Source of the DNA: an uncultured Actinomycetota bacterium
GTDB taxonomy: Bacteria; Actinomycetota; Actinomycetes; CAVWCF01
Assembly: GCA_963753435.1 (NCBI GenBank)
Contig: CAVWCF010000001.1
Location: forward strand, 1,248,001 to 1,312,000
Reading direction: 5' to 3'
Length of the DNA stretch: 64,000 nt
Below, piece by piece: positions 4,758-64,000 of this stretch (positions are counted from its first letter, which is position 1; each line of letters opens with the position of its first letter). A program made the position numbers and the translations under genes. The notes under the pieces are model-generated. The model was not told where the DNA came from. It made no database searches and saw only the letters and a list, made by a program, of their open reading frames with translations.

Positions 4758-6221
4758 CTACTCCACGATGCGAACCACGCCGCCCCGGCGCGGATCGGCC
4801 GCAGCCGTGACCGCCCCGTCCGGATGGCGTTGCACCGCGTGCACACCGCCGAAGTAGAGGTTGCGCTCCTGCCAGACCCGCACCTCGCCGAGGGCCGCCA
4901 ATGCCGACAGTTGCTCGTCCGTGGCACCCGGCTCCACGTTCACCACTCCGTTGGTGGGGTGCGCTCGGGCTGCCGCAATGGCCTCGGGCAACGACATGCC
5001 GCGGTCGGTCAGGTTCACCGTCATCGCCAGCAATGCGGACCGGATCCGCTCGCTGCCGCCGCTGCCGAACCCCACGAGGGAGCCATCGGCGGCGCGGAGC
5101 AGGCTGGGGGCCATCATCGAAGCGATCCGGCTGCTCGGAGTTGCCGTGTGCAGGCCCCCGGGATGCAGGTCCTCCTCGCCGAGCATGTTGTTCAACTGAA
5201 CCCCGAGGCCCGCGGCGTACTGCCCCGATCCCGAGCCGTTCGACGTGGTCATCGCCGCGATCATCCCGGCGGAGTCCACGACACTGACATGGGTGGTACC
5301 GCGAACGGACATTCGCCGCTGCGTGCGGTGCTGCTCGGTAGCCGTGCGAATTGCCGAAACCTGATTGGCCAGGCCGTCGCTGGTGTCAACCGATCCGGGA
5401 CCAAGCAGTCCGATGGCTGAAGTGATGATGCTGCCGCCGAGGGAGGGGGGTGGATTCGTCAGCAGCGATGCCCCGCTGCGGCTTGCCACCAAGGGCCGGC
5501 GCAGGACCACCCGGTACCGCTGCTGGTCGGCGACGGTCAACAGTCCGCCGCCGGCCGTAACCGTTTCAACCGCGGCAAATCGAAATCGGTCCACACCCCG
5601 GGCCGGAGATGCGGCCAGATCGCCGAGGAAGCTGGCATATGCCGGGTTCCGCAACCGGTCACCGGCGACGGGGTAGCGACCTCCTCCGCCAAACAGCGCC
5701 GCACCCTCGTCGGTGCTGGTGAGGATGTCGCCGATCAGGGTGAACACGTGTTCCTGGGCGGCATCCATCACCGCACCAACATCCGCGAGTTGCTGGGCCG
5801 GGCCGACTACGGATGCCAGCGGGATGGCCCCCCACGCCTCATGGGCATGCAGGTAACCGGCCAAGCAGCCAGGTACGGCTACCGAGGCCGGTCCGACGTG
5901 GAACACCTGGTCGGCGCCGAGGAACCTGACGGTGATCGGGACTAGTGGTGCCCCGGAGCCCGGGGGCGCAGCCGGGGTGTTGGTGAAGAAGTCGCTGATC
6001 CAGGTCTCCCCGTCCGGCGTGTGGACCATGAGAAAGCCGCCACCGGCGAGACTGCTCAAACCCGGCTCGGCTACTGGCGCCGCGAAGCCCGCCGCCAGGA
6101 CTGCGTCGACGGCGTTGCCTCCATCGGCCAGCACGGACGCAGCCGCGTCTGCGGTGCCGACGCTGCCAGCGGCCACGGCTGCGCAGCCCGGTTGACCCGA
6201 CGCGTAGGGCACTGAACTCAC
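4758..6221 (-). CDS. Gamma-glutamyltransferase family protein (Ntn hydrolase)
   Basis: GGNAVDA..A, GGGF, VAVPG, autocleavage site GTTHVSVVD, LNNMLGE, SMMAP, GSGGSERI and ADPRRGG. Start estimated at GTG 6221 or 6212. Confidence 0.9.
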   Translation of the reverse strand: MSSVPYASGQPGCAAVAAGSVGTADAAASVLADGGNAVDAVLAAGFAAPVAEPGLSSLAGGGFLMVHTPDGETWISDFFTNTPAAPPGSGAPLVPITVRFLGADQVFHVGPASVAVPGCLAGYLHAHEAWGAIPLASVVGPAQQLADVGAVMDAAQEHVFTLIGDILTSTDEGAALFGGGGRYPVAGDRLRNPAYASFLGDLAASPARGVDRFRFAAVETVTAGGGLLTVADQQRYRVVLRRPLVASRSGASLLTNPPPSLGGSIITSAIGLLGPGSVDTSDGLANQVSAIRTATEQHRTQRRMSVRGTTHVSVVDSAGMIAAMTTSNGSGSGQYAAGLGVQLNNMLGEEDLHPGGLHTATPSSRIASMMAPSLLRAADGSLVGFGSGGSERIRSALLAMTVNLTDRGMSLPEAIAAARAHPTNGVVNVEPGATDEQLSALAALGEVRVWQERNLYFGGVHAVQRHPDGAVTAAADPRRGGVVRIVE

Positions 6222-54096: not shown

Positions 54097-54170
<74 letters not shown>

Positions 54171-54193
54171 CGATGTCGAGTAGCGCAGCGATC

Positions 54194-54586
54194 TCAATCG
54201 CTCGCGACTTCGCGCAGCATCTTTCCTAGCTGGGCATAGCGCTGCGCGCCGAGGCGCTCGGCGTAGCGCTCCTCGACCCGGGCCACGGCCTCCTCGAACC
54301 GAGCGTTCAACTCATTCCCACGCCCCGACCTTCGGACCAGCCAGGCCCGCCCGTCTGCGGGATCGGGCGTCCGCTTGATCAAACCCTCAGCTTCCAGCCC
54401 TTCGATCGCTTCGGCCATCGCCTGCTTGCTGATGCCGGCGCGATCAGCAAGGTCCTGCTGCCGGGCACCGGCAGCAGGGATCAGTTGGAGCAACCGGATC
54501 CGCCGCAGCCCCAGATGCGCCAGTTCCTCGGGTAGGACAGCGCCAAGCTCAACAGCGGTACGCGCCTGAACAGCCTCAAGAAGCAC
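54194..54586 (-). CDS. MarR family transcriptional regulator (start uncertain; the reading frame extends to about 54650)
   Basis: [31 protein letters not shown] winged-helix signature. Confidence 0.9.
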
Positions 54587-54629
54587 CAGCAGATGGTCTG
54601 GCGATGCAGGGTCGATGTCGAACTCCCAG

Positions 54630-54670
54630 TGGTCAATCTTCTTGACTAAAATGGTCAGGTAGGTTGACGA
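54630..54670. promoter_or_regulatory. Tandem palindromic operators GTCAA-N5-TTGAC and GTCAG-N5-TTGAC between the divergent marR and SDR-RCCR genes
   Basis: Perfect inverted repeat at 54632-54646 and a one-mismatch copy at 54654-54668, flanking TAAAAT (54647-54652). Confidence 0.75.
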
Positions 54671-54700
54671 TACTCCGGGATCGCGAAGAAGGGGAACGGC

Positions 54701-56344
54701 ATGCGGGTACTTATCGTCGGTTGTGGGCTGGTCGGCAAGGAGTTGGCTCAGCAACTCCGGGCGGATGGCCACCACGTCATCGGCACCACCACGACTCCCG
54801 GCAAGGTCACCGCGCTGCAGCAGGTGTGCGACGACGTTGCCGTGCTCACCGGCGCCGACACCGCGGCCGTGCACGCCGCCGCCAAGGACGTCGACGCGAT
54901 CGTGGTAACCGCCGGTCCCGCCGCCGCCCAGGCCATGACGGTCGAGCAACGGCAGAAGACCTACCGCCGTGTCCTTGTCGACACCGCCGAGTCGGTGTCG
55001 AGTGTGCCCGGCGACCCCTACCTCGTGATGCTGTCATCCCTGTCGGTCTACGGGGACGCGGCCAACCACCTGGACGTCATCGACGAGTCCAGCCCCCTGT
55101 CAGACAGCGAGGACCCAAGCCCGGCCATGTTCCAAGAGGCGGAGCGCACCTACCGCAACGCCGCCGCGGATCGGCTGGCGATCTTCCGCTGCGCCGACAT
55201 CACCGGTGGCGAGGATCCGCCGATCATGGACAAGCTGCGCATGGCCCATCAGGTCTTGGGTGGTTCGGTGCCGTTCCACGACGAGGCGCTCTTCTACCGC
55301 GTCCACATGCTCGATGTGGTCGGAGCCGTGAAGTACGCCCTCGACCGCCGCTTCACCGGCACCTACAACCTCACCCACGCCGAGGTGCCGCCGCCCATGC
55401 AGCCGTACTTCGATGCCCTGTGCGCCCTGGACGGCCTGCCGCCGCTGCAGTACCGCAACGAGTTGACGGCACCTACCAAGCCGGTATCCGTGGACGCCCT
55501 GCTGGCCACTGGCTTCACCCTCGCCCACACGCAGGTTGAGGAGATGCCGGCCGCGGACGCGGTCGCACCGCCGAGCGCACTCACCGGCATCGACCGGACG
55601 GGCCGAGAGATGGTCACGGCCGTTCTCGATCGACTCATCTCGGAACTGGAACTCACTGAGGAAACATCTGCGGACGGCCAGCCCGTGCTGCCGATCACCG
55701 CAGTCGGTGGCGTCAAGGACGGGCAGCGAATCGGCGAGTTCCGGGTGTTCTCCCGCCCGGGTGGTCCCCGCGTCGTCTACAGCGCGCTCTCAATCGACGA
55801 CTTCGGCATGGACACCCACCAGGTCTACGCATTCACCGGCGCGGACAGTGCGGTACCGCACCTGTTCGTCGACACCGCGATCTCGCCCAACACCGATGGC
55901 ACGTTCCACTTCGGCCTGGACCTGGTTGCGCGGGTCGATCTGGCCGCTTCCTTCGACTACACGCAGGCCGTGTACGGAGAACTCACCGACGTCCGGGGCG
56001 ACGCCCTAGCCACACCCGGCGTCCTGCCGGTCCCGTCGCTCGGCCCGTTGCAGTGGTCGCTGCGCTCACCCTGGATGCTCGCAGCCATCGCCGCGCCCGG
56101 TGACCTGAAAGCGCTCGCTCCCGCGGTGGATGCCTACGTTGACCAGTGGCTGAACCTGGTCAAGTCGGGGCTGCCGGAGGCCGCGGCCGCCGACGCGCAG
56201 TGGCAGAACGTCGCTGAGCGCGACCGACGCAATCGCGCCGCAATCTTCTCCCCCGCGGCCAACCCGGTCTGGTTCCTGCTGGACCGGCTGGTGGGCGCCG
56301 AGCAGTCGGCCGCCATGCGGGCGCTGCTTACCGCGCAGGACTGA
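54701..56344 (+). CDS. Fusion of an atypical NAD(P)-binding SDR/epimerase domain and a red chlorophyll catabolite reductase (RCCR)/ferredoxin-dependent bilin reductase-like domain
   Basis: N-terminus GCGLVG..GTTT, SS.SVYG, FRCADITG. C-terminus AFT..DSAVPH..VD, F.LDL..RVDL....DY...VY, SPW, Y..QWL and ERD..NR parallels remembered RCCR blocks. Confidence 0.72.
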   Translation: MRVLIVGCGLVGKELAQQLRADGHHVIGTTTTPGKVTALQQVCDDVAVLTGADTAAVHAAAKDVDAIVVTAGPAAAQAMTVEQRQKTYRRVLVDTAESVSSVPGDPYLVMLSSLSVYGDAANHLDVIDESSPLSDSEDPSPAMFQEAERTYRNAAADRLAIFRCADITGGEDPPIMDKLRMAHQVLGGSVPFHDEALFYRVHMLDVVGAVKYALDRRFTGTYNLTHAEVPPPMQPYFDALCALDGLPPLQYRNELTAPTKPVSVDALLATGFTLAHTQVEEMPAADAVAPPSALTGIDRTGREMVTAVLDRLISELELTEETSADGQPVLPITAVGGVKDGQRIGEFRVFSRPGGPRVVYSALSIDDFGMDTHQVYAFTGADSAVPHLFVDTAISPNTDGTFHFGLDLVARVDLAASFDYTQAVYGELTDVRGDALATPGVLPVPSLGPLQWSLRSPWMLAAIAAPGDLKALAPAVDAYVDQWLNLVKSGLPEAAAADAQWQNVAERDRRNRAAIFSPAANPVWFLLDRLVGAEQSAAMRALLTAQD

Positions 56345-56345
56345 A

Positions 56346-57215
56346 GTGCGGCGCGGACCCGCTGACGGAGACTGGGTCGCAAGCCCACTACGGGACAACT
56401 GGTACCAGTCCAGTTCCTATTGGGCCTCGACGTTCGGCCTCGTCACCACCGTGGACGAGGACGGCCAGACCAACGTTGCTCCGTACCAACTGTCGTTCCC
56501 GTTCGAAGTGATCGGCGGGCGCGCGGTGCTGTTGATATCGCGCCCGGACTCAAACACGGCGCGCAACCTGCGCCGTACCGGCGTGTGCGCCATCAACTAC
56601 GTGGAGGCCAAGCGCAAGGAGCTCAAGCGCATCGTCGCTCTCGGCTTCCCTGGTCAGACAACGGCGGAGAAGAGCCCAGACAACCCGTACTCACTGACCG
56701 GCAGCCCAACTCCCGGTCGGTCGCCCGACGGCCGGCGGTTCCCCCATCTGCTCCAAGAGGCGTTCCAGGTATACGAGTGCACGTGGGACACCGAACAGCC
56801 GCTGCACGCCGACCAACCGGCGCCGGCCTACTTCGTGCTGCGGCTGGACGGGATCCTGCTTCGGGAGCGGTGGGCCAAGAACCTGGAGGACGGGGGCCGG
56901 GCAATGCCCCGGCTGCCAATCACGTACGGGTTCCGCGGGGGCACCAGATTCTGGTTCGCCAAGGTGCGCAAGCCGTTCTGGATCGACACCCCCACCGATC
57001 GTGGGCCCAAAGAGGAGGCGATCCTCTACGAGGCCAACCGAATCGACCCGGACGTCCGGTTCACCCGGGAGGCGTGCCAGCAGTTGACGGGAGTGCCGCG
57101 ACCGTTTCTGAAGATGGCGCTGAAAGGCATCGTCAAGAAGGCCAAGGAACGTGGGCTGACCGAGGTCGACGTCGACTTCGTCCGCGAAGTCGACGAGCAG
57201 CGCCGGGCCGGCTGA
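56346..57215 (+). CDS. Flavin-reductase-like (split barrel) domain fused to a C-terminal PCP_red (BchB/ChlB C-terminal)-like three-helix domain
   Basis: LVTTVDE.G.TNVAPY, SNTA.NL..TG...INY and YEC. C-terminus FT.EA...L..VP.PFLK.AL..I...A.E.G..EV..D.V. Confidence 0.72.
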   Translation: MRRGPADGDWVASPLRDNWYQSSSYWASTFGLVTTVDEDGQTNVAPYQLSFPFEVIGGRAVLLISRPDSNTARNLRRTGVCAINYVEAKRKELKRIVALGFPGQTTAEKSPDNPYSLTGSPTPGRSPDGRRFPHLLQEAFQVYECTWDTEQPLHADQPAPAYFVLRLDGILLRERWAKNLEDGGRAMPRLPITYGFRGGTRFWFAKVRKPFWIDTPTDRGPKEEAILYEANRIDPDVRFTREACQQLTGVPRPFLKMALKGIVKKAKERGLTEVDVDFVREVDEQRRAG

Positions 57216-57226
57216 ACTAGAAGCCG

Positions 57227-58645
57227 TCAGCCGGCAGGTCGCCATCTCGATACGGCACAGGTTCCGGTGGCGCTGCGTCGGGCCTGTTGCAGTTCCACCT
57301 CGGCGCCGCTGGCGTCGGCGAGGCTGCGCACGATGGCCAGCCCGAGCCCGGATCCGGTCCGTTCGGACGTGCCGCGCCAGAAGCGGTCGAAGGCATGCGC
57401 CCGCTCCGCCGAGCTCAATCCGGCGCCGGCATCCTCGACCGATACCTCGATCCAGTCACCTGCTCGTTTCAAGCCGACGTGCAGTTCGCTGTCCGGAGGT
57501 GCCGCCTCAAGCGCGTTGTCGAGGTAGTTGTCGAGCACCTGGCCGACGCCATCGGACACCGACCACACCAGCCACGAGCCCGCAGCGTCGGCGGTGTCGG
57601 TGGTGATGGACACACCCCGCTCAGCCGCCAACGCCTCCCAATCGCTGACGCGCTGCCGAACCGCCACGGCCACGTCTACCTGCTCTCGCTCCTGATCACC
57701 GCGGTCGGCGCGGGCCAAGGCGAGGAGTCCTTCGACGAGTCGCTGCATGCGTTCGACGTCACCGGCCATCTGCTCCAGGGCTTGCGCCGACGCCTCCGGG
57801 TCGCGGTCAGCAAGTTCCTGGGCTGTCTCGATCCGCATGCGCAGAGCCGTCAGCGGACTACGCAGCTGATGGGAGGCGTCGCCGGCGAAGTTGCGCTGCG
57901 CGGCCACGACGGTCTCCACCCGTTGGGCCATCGTGTTGAAGGATTGAGCGACGTCGCCGAGTTCACCAATCGCCTGTGGATCAACTCGGGCACCAAGATC
58001 GCCACCGGCAATCGCCTCCGAGGTCTGCCGCAGGCGGCTGAGTGGCTCGGTCACAAGCCGCGCGATCAGAACCGCGATAAACGCTGCCGCCACCAGGGTG
58101 ATGAGGGCAACGACCAGCAGTCCGCGGACCCGTTCGTCGACGGCCTGGTCCACCTCCGCAGCCGGATAGGTGATGCGCACTGTTCCCAAGATGTCCGCGC
58201 CGGAGCGCACCGGAACGGCCACGTAGAGCAGGTCCTCACCGGCAGAGTCGGACGGCCGCTGGCCCGCAACCGCCTCCCCGCTGAGGGCAGCCGCTATCTC
58301 CGGGCGATTGGTGTAGTCCTGCCCCAGGTCGGTGCCATCGGAAGTGACCACCGCAATGCCGGCCGCGTCGGTGACCACCACGCGCGCACCGGTCGCCGTG
58401 GAGTACTCCGACACCACCGAGGTCACCTCGTTCAGCCCTGCGGGGTCGCCACCGCCCAGTACGTCCTCGGCCTGGCCGGCGATTGTGAACGCGTCTCGCT
58501 GCAACCCGGTGACGATCCGATCGCGTTCGACACCACGAAGATGCGACGCAAGCGGGATGTTCTGGACCAACAGCACCGTCGCGGTGAACGCGACCATCAC
58601 TGCCACCAGTACCCATCGAAACGATGCCCGGCGCCAACTGCTCAT
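57227..58645 (-). CDS. Two-component sensor histidine kinase (HAMP, HisKA, HATPase)
   Basis: Two TMs, HAMP domain, DASHQLRSPL, NYLDNA, D.GAG, FDRFWR and GSGLGL. Confidence 0.95.
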   Translation of the reverse strand: MSSWRRASFRWVLVAVMVAFTATVLLVQNIPLASHLRGVERDRIVTGLQRDAFTIAGQAEDVLGGGDPAGLNEVTSVVSEYSTATGARVVVTDAAGIAVVTSDGTDLGQDYTNRPEIAAALSGEAVAGQRPSDSAGEDLLYVAVPVRSGADILGTVRITYPAAEVDQAVDERVRGLLVVALITLVAAAFIAVLIARLVTEPLSRLRQTSEAIAGGDLGARVDPQAIGELGDVAQSFNTMAQRVETVVAAQRNFAGDASHQLRSPLTALRMRIETAQELADRDPEASAQALEQMAGDVERMQRLVEGLLALARADRGDQEREQVDVAVAVRQRVSDWEALAAERGVSITTDTADAAGSWLVWSVSDGVGQVLDNYLDNALEAAPPDSELHVGLKRAGDWIEVSVEDAGAGLSSAERAHAFDRFWRGTSERTGSGLGLAIVRSLADASGAEVELQQARRSATGTCAVSRWRPAG

Positions 58646-59328
58646 TGCGGCGTACCCAACCGAAAGCCGACGCCGCGAACCGCCTCGACCCAGCTCGGAT
58701 CTCCAAGCTTGCGCCGGATGGCTGCCACGTGTGCGTCGACTGTCTTCGTCGGCCCATACCAGTGGGCATCCCAAACGTGTTCCAGGATCTCGGTCCGGCG
58801 CCGCAGCGCACCAGGATCCTCGGCGAGGAAGGCGAGCACCCCGAACTCCTTCGGGGTCATGGCGACTTCGGCGCCGTCGAGGAAGACGCGTTGGGTGCGG
58901 CGGTCGATCGCCAATCGACCCAGCTCCTGTTGTGTCGACTGCTCCGCCAGCGGTGCCGACCCCGACCCTGCCCGCGCCCGTCGGGATACGGCTCGAACCC
59001 GGGCCACGAGTTCCCGCAACCCGAAGGGCTTCACCAGGTAGTCGTCCGCGCCCAGCTCCAGCGCCAACACTCGGTCGAACTCCTCAGACCTGGCGCTGAC
59101 CACCACGATCGGGACGTCCGAAGTCCGCCGGATCTCCCGAGCCACGTCTTGACCGTCAAGGTCGGGTAGGCCCAGATCGAGCAGGACGACATCCGGCGTT
59201 GCAGCTGCGACAGCTGCCAGCCCACTGCGACCGTCCCGAACGTGCTGGACCTCGAAACCGGCCGACTCCAGGCCGGCCACGGTTGACGCCGCAATCCCGG
59301 AGTCGTCCTCCACCAGCAGAACTCGCAC
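58642..59328 (-). CDS. OmpR family response regulator
   Basis: LLVEDD, LLDLGLP, GADDYLVKPF and TVDAHV..IRRKL..VRGVGFR. Confidence 0.95.
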   Translation of the reverse strand: MRVLLVEDDSGIAASTVAGLESAGFEVQHVRDGRSGLAAVAAATPDVVLLDLGLPDLDGQDVAREIRRTSDVPIVVVSARSEEFDRVLALELGADDYLVKPFGLRELVARVRAVSRRARAGSGSAPLAEQSTQQELGRLAIDRRTQRVFLDGAEVAMTPKEFGVLAFLAEDPGALRRRTEILEHVWDAHWYGPTKTVDAHVAAIRRKLGDPSWVEAVRGVGFRLGTPQ

Positions 59329-59501
59329 CCACACATGATGCCGGTGCCATGGGCCCATCCCTGGTCACGGCCGCGGGTTCCTGGGCCGAATCTTGGGAAT
59401 TCTTGGACGTTTCTTGGACAAGCGGCACCCAGAACCACGCCGATGCATCCATAGCGTCGGCACTGCCGATCGAAACACCCGATGGCAGAGGAGGAAGACC
59501 A

Positions 59502-59936
59502 ATGGATGCAAAGCTCGCAGTGGGCCTGTCCGTAGCGGGGATCTTGGTGGCAGCCGGTTCGGCTGCCGCGGTCAACGCCCGGGTCCTTGAGTCACAGGAC
59601 GACTCACCAATCGGAAGCGCCGAGGACTTCGTGGTGCAGACCGATTCACCGTCACCGCAGCCGACGCCGACACTGACCGAGGTCATCACGATCCCGCCCA
59701 GCCCGGCGCCGTCCGCGACACCCAGCACCGCAGCGAGCAGCCAGTCGACTCGTTCAGCGGCCCCAAGTTCTTCACCGAGCCCCAGCGCCAGCGCCTCCGA
59801 CGACGACCGCTACGACGACAACGGCGGCGACCGCGACGACTCCGACTCCGACGACGACAGCTATGACGACAACGGCGGCGACCGCGACGACTCCGATGAC
59901 GACAACTCCGGGTCCGGTTCCCGAGACGACGACTGA
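59502..59936 (+). CDS. Exported low-complexity protein with a Ser/Pro linker and an Asp-rich repeated tail
   Basis: GAGGAGG RBS, signal/TM segment ending SAAA-VN, and two copies of SDDDxYDDNGGDRDDSD. Confidence 0.75.
   Translation: MDAKLAVGLSVAGILVAAGSAAAVNARVLESQDDSPIGSAEDFVVQTDSPSPQPTPTLTEVITIPPSPAPSATPSTAASSQSTRSAAPSSSPSPSASASDDDRYDDNGGDRDDSDSDDDSYDDNGGDRDDSDDDNSGSGSRDDD
59796..59897 (+). repeat. 51-bp in-frame tandem repeat (2 copies)
   Basis: TCCGACGACGAC(C/A)GCTA(C/T)GACGACAACGGCGGCGACCGCGACGACTCCGA(C/T) at 59796-59846 and 59847-59897. Confidence 0.9.
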
Positions 59937-59947
59937 GAAGGACGGAA

Positions 59948-60310
59948 ATGGCACTCGGCAGGTTGAAGTTCCGGCGGCGACCGCACCCGGCGCGCGGCGC
60001 CCGGATCATCACCGGCGGGATGTCTGCGGCGGCAATGATCGCGCTGTCGGGTGCCATGACCAGCCAAGTGGTGGCGACCGCCACAGCGACACAGCCCGTA
60101 TCAGCGGAACTGGAGCCGGCGCCGACAGCGACTCCGGCCGCGCCGGAGCCGCAACACGTGGTCATTGTGCGCAAGTACGTGTACGCGCCGACGCCCTCAG
60201 CTCCGGCAGCCAAACCGTTGCCACAAGCCGTGACCGCACGGGCGGGCGCTCCTGCGCCCGCCAACCCGGCCCCGCCGGCGGACGCCACCTCGGGCGGTTC
60301 CGGTGGCTGA
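59948..60310 (+). CDS. Small membrane-anchored Pro/Ala-rich protein ending in DATSGGS; candidate ApbE flavinylation substrate
   Basis: Basic N-terminus with RRR, one hydrophobic helix, an unstructured linker, and a C-terminal D-x-x-S-G-x-S motif. The stop overlaps the apbE start. Confidence 0.7.
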   Translation: MALGRLKFRRRPHPARGARIITGGMSAAAMIALSGAMTSQVVATATATQPVSAELEPAPTATPAAPEPQHVVIVRKYVYAPTPSAPAAKPLPQAVTARAGAPAPANPAPPADATSGGSGG

Positions 60311-61249
60311 GACGGCACAGACGTCGGTGGTTCGCGCGACGTTCACGCAGGTCATGGGCGGCAGCGCGTCCGCCGTGGTCGTGGGACCGGACTCCGCAGT
60401 CGGTCCCGCGCCAGCGGAGTTGCTCGCCCGGGCCGAAGCCCGGCTGCGGGAACTGGAAAGCAAGTGGACGCGCTTCGATGCCCGCAGCGAGTTGTCCCAA
60501 CTGGCCAGCGCCAATGGTCTCCCGGTCGCGGTCTCAGCGGACACCCGCGCGCTCGTCGCCGCCATGGCCGACGCCTGGGCCATGACCGGGGGCCTCGTTG
60601 ATGCATCCGTCCTGCCCGCAGTCCTGAGCGCCGGGTACACCAGGAGCGCGCTGGACTCCCAAGTGGCCGCCAGCCAGCCGAAGTGGGCGTGGGTGGGGGC
60701 CGATTGGCGGCAGGTCGTGATCGACGAATCCGCCGGCACGGTGACGCTTCCCCCCGGTTTGGCGCCGGACCCCGGCGGTATCGGTAAGGGACTGGCCGCA
60801 GATCTGGTCGTGGCCGAATTGCTGCAGGCCGGCGCAGCGGGCGCGCTCATCGAGATCGGCGGCGATCTGCGCTGTGGCGGCCAGCCGCCTCGGGTAGACG
60901 GATGGTCAGTGGACGTGGACCACCCGCTGCACGACGGATCGTTGACGAACGTGACCATCCATGAAGGTGCCGTCGCCACCTCAAGCATCATGAAGCGGCG
61001 ATTCGTGAACGGATCCGGCAAGCCGAGCCATCACCTCATCGGCCGCGACGGCCAGCCCGCCAACCACGGTCTCGCTACGTGCACCGTGGTCATCGGCACC
61101 GGCGTGTTGGCCGAGACGCTGGCCAAGGTCCCGATGCTGGCCGGTGAGGAGTCCGGCCTAGCGCTGCTGGAGCAATACGAAGTGCCGGCGCTGGTGGTCC
61201 GGCTGGACGGGACTGTTGCCAAGACAACCGGTTGGGGGCGAGTAGGGCG

Positions 61250-61253
<4 letters not shown>
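60303..61253 (+). CDS. apbE: FAD:protein FMN transferase
   Basis: MG, W.RF...SELS, DPGGIGKG..AD, IGGDLR, VATSS and HHLI. No evident signal peptide. Confidence 0.92.

Positions 61254-64000
<2,747 letters not shown>

Follow-up and report, generated by a model that had tools for sequence, protein, structure and literature searches.

The subject of this analysis is a unit of three genes, marR, A and B, in a 64,000-nt stretch of DNA (the window) from an uncultured Actinomycetota bacterium, whose genome (2.17 Mb, 68% GC) is 98% complete. Gene A (54701-56344) encodes a protein of 547 aa in which a short-chain dehydrogenase/reductase (SDR) domain is joined to a domain with a predicted RCCR-type fold, and gene B (56346-57215; 289 aa, GTG start) follows after 1 nt. 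As already described in an initial annotation made from the sequence alone, the two genes are accompanied by a divergent marR gene and two palindromes, and the whole unit lies directly after a tRNA-Pro gene (Table 1). The marR-A-B unit is real and conserved, A falls outside the RCCR family proper, and the catabolic pathway to which the unit is attached is probably undescribed.

The marR-A-B unit and its operator-like palindromes

The repressor-operator anatomy proposed in the initial annotation was well supported. The MarR protein contains a winged-helix domain, and the divergent spacer contains palindromes of the form GTCA-N7-TGAC that are conserved near related marR genes. In the host genome this motif occurs at 35 single sites and as one tandem pair only, which is the pair beside marR-A (about 0.02 tandem pairs expected). 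For 14 relatives of gene A, the 150 nt before the gene were surveyed. Among the six A relatives with an adjoining marR, two perfect sites were present in four, one site in one and two sites with a mismatch in one; no palindrome was detected in the eight relatives in which no marR was seen, two of which have a LysR gene instead. The marR gene and the palindromes mark a real regulatory unit, and their anatomy and conservation suggest that MarR may bind the putative operators.

It is important to mention that no ATG, GTG or TTG codon lies between the operators and the conserved PDH motif of marR, which is a caveat on the gene call. The candidate start is an ATC at 54616, 6 nt after GGGAG, and the first in-frame GTG is at 54586; a contig from another study spans this start region (window positions 54586-54630) with two differences. 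Sigma-70 promoter and terminator consensus sequences were looked for at the unit, and none was found.

Table 1. Features of the marR-A-B unit (positions in the window).
Feature	Position	Strand	Evidence
tRNA-Pro(CGG)	54097..54171	+	
marR, divergent MarR-family repressor	54194..54616	-	Pfam MarR_2 E 7e-11; homolog N-termini; start uncertain
Operator-like palindrome 1, GTCA-N7-TGAC	54632..54646		
Operator-like palindrome 2, GTCA-N7-TGAC, 22 bp after palindrome 1	54654..54668		
Gene A, N-terminal atypical extended-SDR Rossmann domain	54701..55540	+	PF01370 E 3e-8; PDB 3gpi E 5e-6; alignment
Gene A, C-terminal RCCR/FDBR-fold domain	55583..56344	+	Family profile, predicted structure, residue alignment
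Gene B, flavoredoxin/MTH152-type split barrel (predicted FMN-binding) and linker	56346..57032	+	
Gene B, C-terminal PCP_red-like helical module	57033..57215	+	

A mobile island at the tRNA-Pro gene was considered and is not supported: a duplicated tRNA 3' end, which would mark an integration scar, was not found, and in GC and GC3 both A and B resemble the neighbouring genes. Sequence words (share of at least 0.2) were found in eight runs from sediment, freshwater, runoff and estuary, which belong to five studies; one of these runs may be the source. marR, A and B are each covered in part by contigs from estuary RNA libraries, which, given their small shares and the lack of a silent control, are not counted as expression. 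Beyond gene B, in window positions 57227-61849, a convergent sensor kinase (library scan) and a response regulator were observed; the open reading frames (ORFs) after this response regulator resemble genes for a flavin transferase of the ApbE type and for a membrane protein of the ferric-reductase type.

The RCCR-like domain of gene A

With residues 295-547 of A as a single query, no match was obtained in Pfam or PDB, including RCC_reductase (PF06405). The domain was placed only by profiles and a structural model. The annotated RCCR-like domain, which the sequence of A did not reveal on its own, was recovered with a family profile (33 sequences: 32 of 44 homologs and the query), whose first match, at a weak E of 0.014, is RCCR. 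PF06405 is matched at E ≤ 1 by 9 of the 33 family members (best 6e-5), A itself not among them, and its gathering score is not reached by A but is passed by the R2 paralogs described below. PF05996, the bilin synthases among the ferredoxin-dependent bilin reductases (FDBRs), is matched by 1 of 33 members (E = 0.1), and ESM features place the domain near both the PF05996 and PF06405 clusters (0.94).

The predicted structure of the domain (pLDDT 95.6) superposes on RCCR with Z = 21.9 (231 residues at rmsd 2.9, sequence identity 20%) and on the bilin reductases HY2, PebB, PebA, PcyA and PebS with Z = 21.5, 21.4, 21.2, 21.1 and 18.9, respectively. Coproporphyrinogen oxidase follows at 14.4, unrelated folds score at most 5.5, and of the ten structures matched at Z ≥ 8, nine belong to RCCR, the bilin reductases or the coproporphyrinogen oxidases. 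On this model the RCCR/FDBR alpha-beta-alpha fold is certain, in agreement with the initial annotation, and the predicted structure gives a tie between RCCR and FDBR. According to one report (PMC13193486), the families that have this fold are RCCR, the FDBRs and coproporphyrinogen oxidase, all of which bind tetrapyrroles, and phylogeny is a poor predictor of FDBR activity.

A tree of 67 of 270 sequences (midpoint root, no plant sequences) separates the SDR-linked clade of A (95/98) from a stand-alone subfamily, R1, and from R2 with its subclade R2' (99/96). R2, the sister subfamily, aligns to the family of A at 99%, and its profile matches RCCR at E = 4e-22 over most of its length. We take Glu154 and Asp291 of RCCR to be its catalytic acids, the numbering being derived from the chain offset. 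In HY2, according to a further report (PMC11879140), two Asp residues are the proton donors. D391 of A aligns with the Glu154 position and is Asp in 51/51 sequences of the A set, in which the neighbouring His, Asp and Arg residues are likewise invariant. At the Asp291 position, mapped through R2, A has N521, so that the second acid is not kept. Asn is found there in 47/51 sequences, the other four being stand-alone R1 proteins from the training set, and thus in 47/47 true members of the clade. R1 has an acid at the Glu154 position in 171/183 and Asp at the Asp291 position in 161/183 sequences; R2 keeps the second acid in 36/36 and shows Ala at the first site in the RCCR alignment. The SDR partner was thus gained, and one acid lost, in one and the same clade; this is a single event and not a trend.

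Residues 1-280 of A form an atypical extended SDR in which GxGxxG is present (PF01370, 33.8 bits; cut-off 20.9). The link between SDR and RCCR-like proteins recurs: it is a fusion in Actinomycetota and Myxococcota, is split in loci L092, L093 and L192, and is an adjacency in the gammaproteobacterial loci L183 and L185. In the latter two (L183:8070-17580 and L185:4630-13024), a riboflavin kinase-HAD gene adjoins the extended SDR and the RCCR-like gene, which has Gln at the sheet acid site; L183 additionally carries UbiD decarboxylases and a DUF169-PCP_red fusion. The genes beside the two stand-alone SDR paralogs were checked and are not RCCR-like.

The host genome has six RCCR-like genes in total. 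The sixth, a divergent RCCR/FDBR-like gene (hhalign 92.8%), lies in the region L195:2861-8412 (G000:C1:~501900-507400) after a dihydroorotate-dehydrogenase-like gene and a 1221-aa ORF that resembles pyruvate:ferredoxin oxidoreductase. A second pair of an oxygenase and an R1 gene was observed at L002:6493-8213 (G000:C1:~808500-810200); this oxygenase matches VanA_C and not the Rieske domain.

Gene B and the accompanying gene cluster

The model of B is a flavoredoxin-type split barrel (Foldseek E = 2e-8), with a PF01613 sequence score below the cut-off. A HugZ/HupZ-type heme enzyme was rejected, as its E values reached only 0.3-0.5 and the fold search favours flavoredoxins. The PCP_red call for the last ~55 aa of B was borne out: B alone matches PF08369 at E = 0.033 (14.7 bits, against a gathering cut-off of 32.5), whereas a profile of 19 B tails matches ChlB/BchB at E = 3.6e-8, which indicates homology. 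PCP_red matches at E ≤ 0.1 were obtained for 28 of 99 family members. The same tail occurs on a second flavin-reductase family (B2, seen in 29 of 80 B loci), on DUF169 proteins and as stand-alone ORFs of 66-74 aa. Because it is found on several unrelated proteins, the tail is not independent evidence of chlorophyll, and the proposal of two independent chlorophyll-type domains needs correction on this point; the distribution points to a reused module, not to proof of a chlorophyll role. The stand-alone ORFs (L178:13977-14174, L187:~5826-6030 and L193:8638-8859) lie behind amine oxidase and DUF1015 genes, with DUF1838 next in two.

Recurrence of the unit was confirmed, the complete marR-A-B arrangement being present in L006, L007 and L087. 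The pairing of A and B turned out to be loose. Of 16 metagenome loci of the clade of A, 5 have B after A (one of them a near copy of the host locus) and two end too early to tell, and an RCCR-like gene is in the flanks of only 4 of 80 B loci. R2' lies directly downstream of B in L005-L007. Across genomes, 48 of the 50 B genomes searched (of 77 listed) have an RCCR-like gene, 43 found with the A profile and five more through R2'. In a sample of 121 genomes of one order, R2' is present in 23/23 with a strong B match vs 7/98 without. With the less sensitive A profile the background was 0/200 in the class of G064 and 5/60 in host relatives, two of these five being the only B carriers. Since the A1 profile missed R2'-type genes in eight small genomes, which were found by direct query, absences based on it, including the 0/200 class control, are weak. 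Four records titled Bifidobacterium breve (L057, L060, L071 and L084) carry B at 64-66% identity and are probably mislabelled; L071 and L084 share their B/B2 layout with freshwater actinobacterial loci.

These distributions bear on two alternatives. B could be a passenger, with marR and A forming the unit and the position and co-occurrence of B reflecting shared ancestry and habitat. The 76 of 80 B loci without an RCCR-like gene in their flanks, and the fact that most B genomes are from related Gammaproteobacteria, are in its favour; the adjacency of B to RCCR-like genes in both Actinomycetota and a myxobacterium (L068), together with the split within one order, makes it very improbable. According to the second, the substrate is a tetrapyrrole, but the RCCR-like domain of A would do no more than bind or channel it, and B would serve the flavin monooxygenases of the pathway as a general flavin reductase instead of passing electrons to RCCR-like enzymes. 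This would explain the Asn at the second acid site throughout the clade, the resemblance of B to flavoredoxins and monooxygenase reductases, and the luciferase-like monooxygenases beside B in 15 of 80 loci; the invariance of D391 and its neighbours and the way in which B tracks R2' across genomes argue against it, and we consider it quite unlikely.

Relatives of A occur in a larger gene cluster. The neighbours of 64 stand-alone RCCR-like loci (many contigs short, some near-duplicates; 8131 of 8344 BLAST queries gave results) include the family u6 (43), a Rieske oxygenase (42), a second RCCR-like protein, R2 (28), HMG-CoA-lyase-like (22) and acyl-CoA-dehydrogenase-like proteins (22), esterase (21), CoA transferase (19), C-N hydrolase (19), SDR (18) and ALDH (16) and, more rarely, cyclic amidohydrolase (15), Amdase (10), LeuC-like protein (10) and isochorismatase (9). 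In the host, the core cluster lies at G000:C1:1563000-1586000 (L001, L165), about 260 kb from marR-A-B, and contains R2, esterase, Rieske oxygenase, R1, u6, SDR, two Amdase-family proteins, C-N hydrolase, HMG-CoA-lyase-like protein, two ALDH, CoA transferase, MFS and IclR. The esterase belongs to PF12740, a family which, we believe, was once named Chlorophyllase2. The double C-N hydrolase (L001:12102-14028) is divided between ORFs of 489 and 175 aa that overlap, which may reflect a frameshift, and for u6 the ESM features point only weakly to DUF3598/BFA1 barrels (0.87). The cluster marker u6 is present in 11/11 tested genomes with the clade of A, and also in G070; in G062 and G063, marR-A-B lies inside the core cluster and R2' follows it. 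The unit is an accessory of this larger cluster and not a complete pathway, contrary to the self-contained two-gene system of the initial annotation.

Proposed role and comparison with known systems

The tetrapyrrole theme of the initial annotation is supported by the fold of A, the match of R2 to RCCR and the clusters that combine Rieske and RCCR-like genes; the substrate itself we infer. In our preferred reading, to which we give a probability of about one half, marR-A-B is a repressor-controlled accessory of the breakdown of ring-opened tetrapyrroles, in which A is an NAD(P)H-fed reductase of an open-chain intermediate and B a flavin electron shuttle. MarR would occupy the two palindromes until released by a pathway intermediate. 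The core cluster, with its Rieske oxygenase, two stand-alone RCCR-like proteins, esterase, amidases, isomerase/racemase-fold proteins, CoA transferase and HMG-CoA-lyase-like protein, would open the ring and dismantle the pyrroles in the order of Rieske ring opening, RCCR-fold reduction, imide/amide hydrolysis, isomerisation or hydration, CoA activation and lyase cleavage; such a series would suit alkyl-pyrrole fragments. The RCCR-fold domain of A may hold the intermediate while its Rossmann domain gives a hydride and D391 a proton, and the Asn at the second acid site would fit a departure from the ferredoxin-driven radical route. B may move electrons from NAD(P)H through FMN to RCCR-like enzymes, most likely R2', with its tail as a putative docking module.

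Several observations weigh against this reading. The Rieske oxygenase matches VanA_C in 3/3 proteins, none of which is listed for PaO (PF08417) at E ≤ 0.05, and structurally it comes nearest to SxtDIOX and NdmA; no chlorophyllase appears among the top 60 PDB matches of the esterase, which comprise cutinases, PETases and further esterases. The SDR activity of A is uncertain because YxxxK is absent, S...F occupying those positions in the alignment. The two gammaproteobacterial SDR-adjacent RCCR-like proteins have another acid pattern (Gln/Asp), and a chloroplast motor-complex chain (8xks_P) shares the fold of the A domain (Z = 18.4). Moreover, A and B are often apart, G001 (88% complete) and G002 (58%) having the clade of A and no B match; u6 was detected with this query in 0/20 other B-carrying or order-sample genomes; and related genomes, mostly Gammaproteobacteria, inflate the co-occurrence counts of B.

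Some of these observations also suit a repurposed RCCR fold, with the cluster and the unit degrading another flat N-heterocycle such as a flavin, a pterin, an indole or an alkaloid product. The neighbouring Rieske, amidase, allantoinase-like and UbiD proteins are of types that act on N-heterocycles in general, the riboflavin kinase-HAD gene stands next to the SDR/RCCR-like pair in L183 and L185, and neither PaO nor chlorophyllase was matched. The structural matches of A, the R2 profile that covers most of RCCR and the acid positions kept across R1 speak against it, and we regard it as unlikely. The tetrapyrrole reading could be extended to an aerobic mineralisation of chlorophyll catabolites or bilins by aquatic heterotrophs of at least three phyla, with A as the first member of the fold in which a fused NADPH module replaces ferredoxin and one acid is lost, and B as a flavin donor to other RCCR-like enzymes; this wider proposal is tentative and rather doubtful.

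To our knowledge, few genes have been named for the disposal of chlorophyll and bilins by microbes of water and sediment. This locus offers small soluble enzymes and markers that surveys could use, together with a repressor whose defined candidate operator could reveal the inducer. If the proposal is true, a member of the bilin-reductase fold that works without ferredoxin would widen the chemistry of this fold and would bear on the origin of plant RCCR. As in the initial annotation, which knew of no such arrangement, no description of the operon or the cluster was found in the literature searched, where subscription journals were mostly uncovered and supplementary trees may include these proteins. 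One report treats plant RCCR as a charophyte innovation (PMC9306834), and another uses RCCR-related bacterial sequences as an outgroup and places pre-PcyA in heterotrophs (PMC10151467).

Among known systems, Arabidopsis RCCR (PDB 2zxk/3agb; PF06405) shares with A the fold and the acid at the Glu154 position, whereas A is bacterial, non-photosynthetic and SDR-fused, has Asn at the Asp291 position and lacks a PF06405 match. Like the plant PAO/RCCR pair, the RCCR-like relatives of A are paired with a Rieske oxygenase; unlike in plants, this oxygenase is not of the PaO family by Pfam. The FDBRs (HY2 6kme, PebB 6qwq, PebA 2x9o, PcyA 2g18) and pre-PcyA have the same fold, with Z values tied with that of RCCR, but are only 11-16% identical to A and differ from it in its catabolic neighbours; unlike in FDBR settings, no globin or heme oxygenase was present among the recurring neighbour families scanned. 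The tail of B resembles the PCP_red module of ChlB/BchB (PF08369; 2xdq, 2kru, Asr4154 2l09) at profile E values of 4e-8 to 3e-5, although it is attached to a flavoprotein, scores below the Pfam cut-off and recurs on unrelated proteins. Finally, B has the split-barrel fold of the flavoredoxin/MTH152 family (1eje, 3bnk, 2d5m; NbaA 4z85), from which it differs by an identity of at most 20% and by its PCP_red-like tail.

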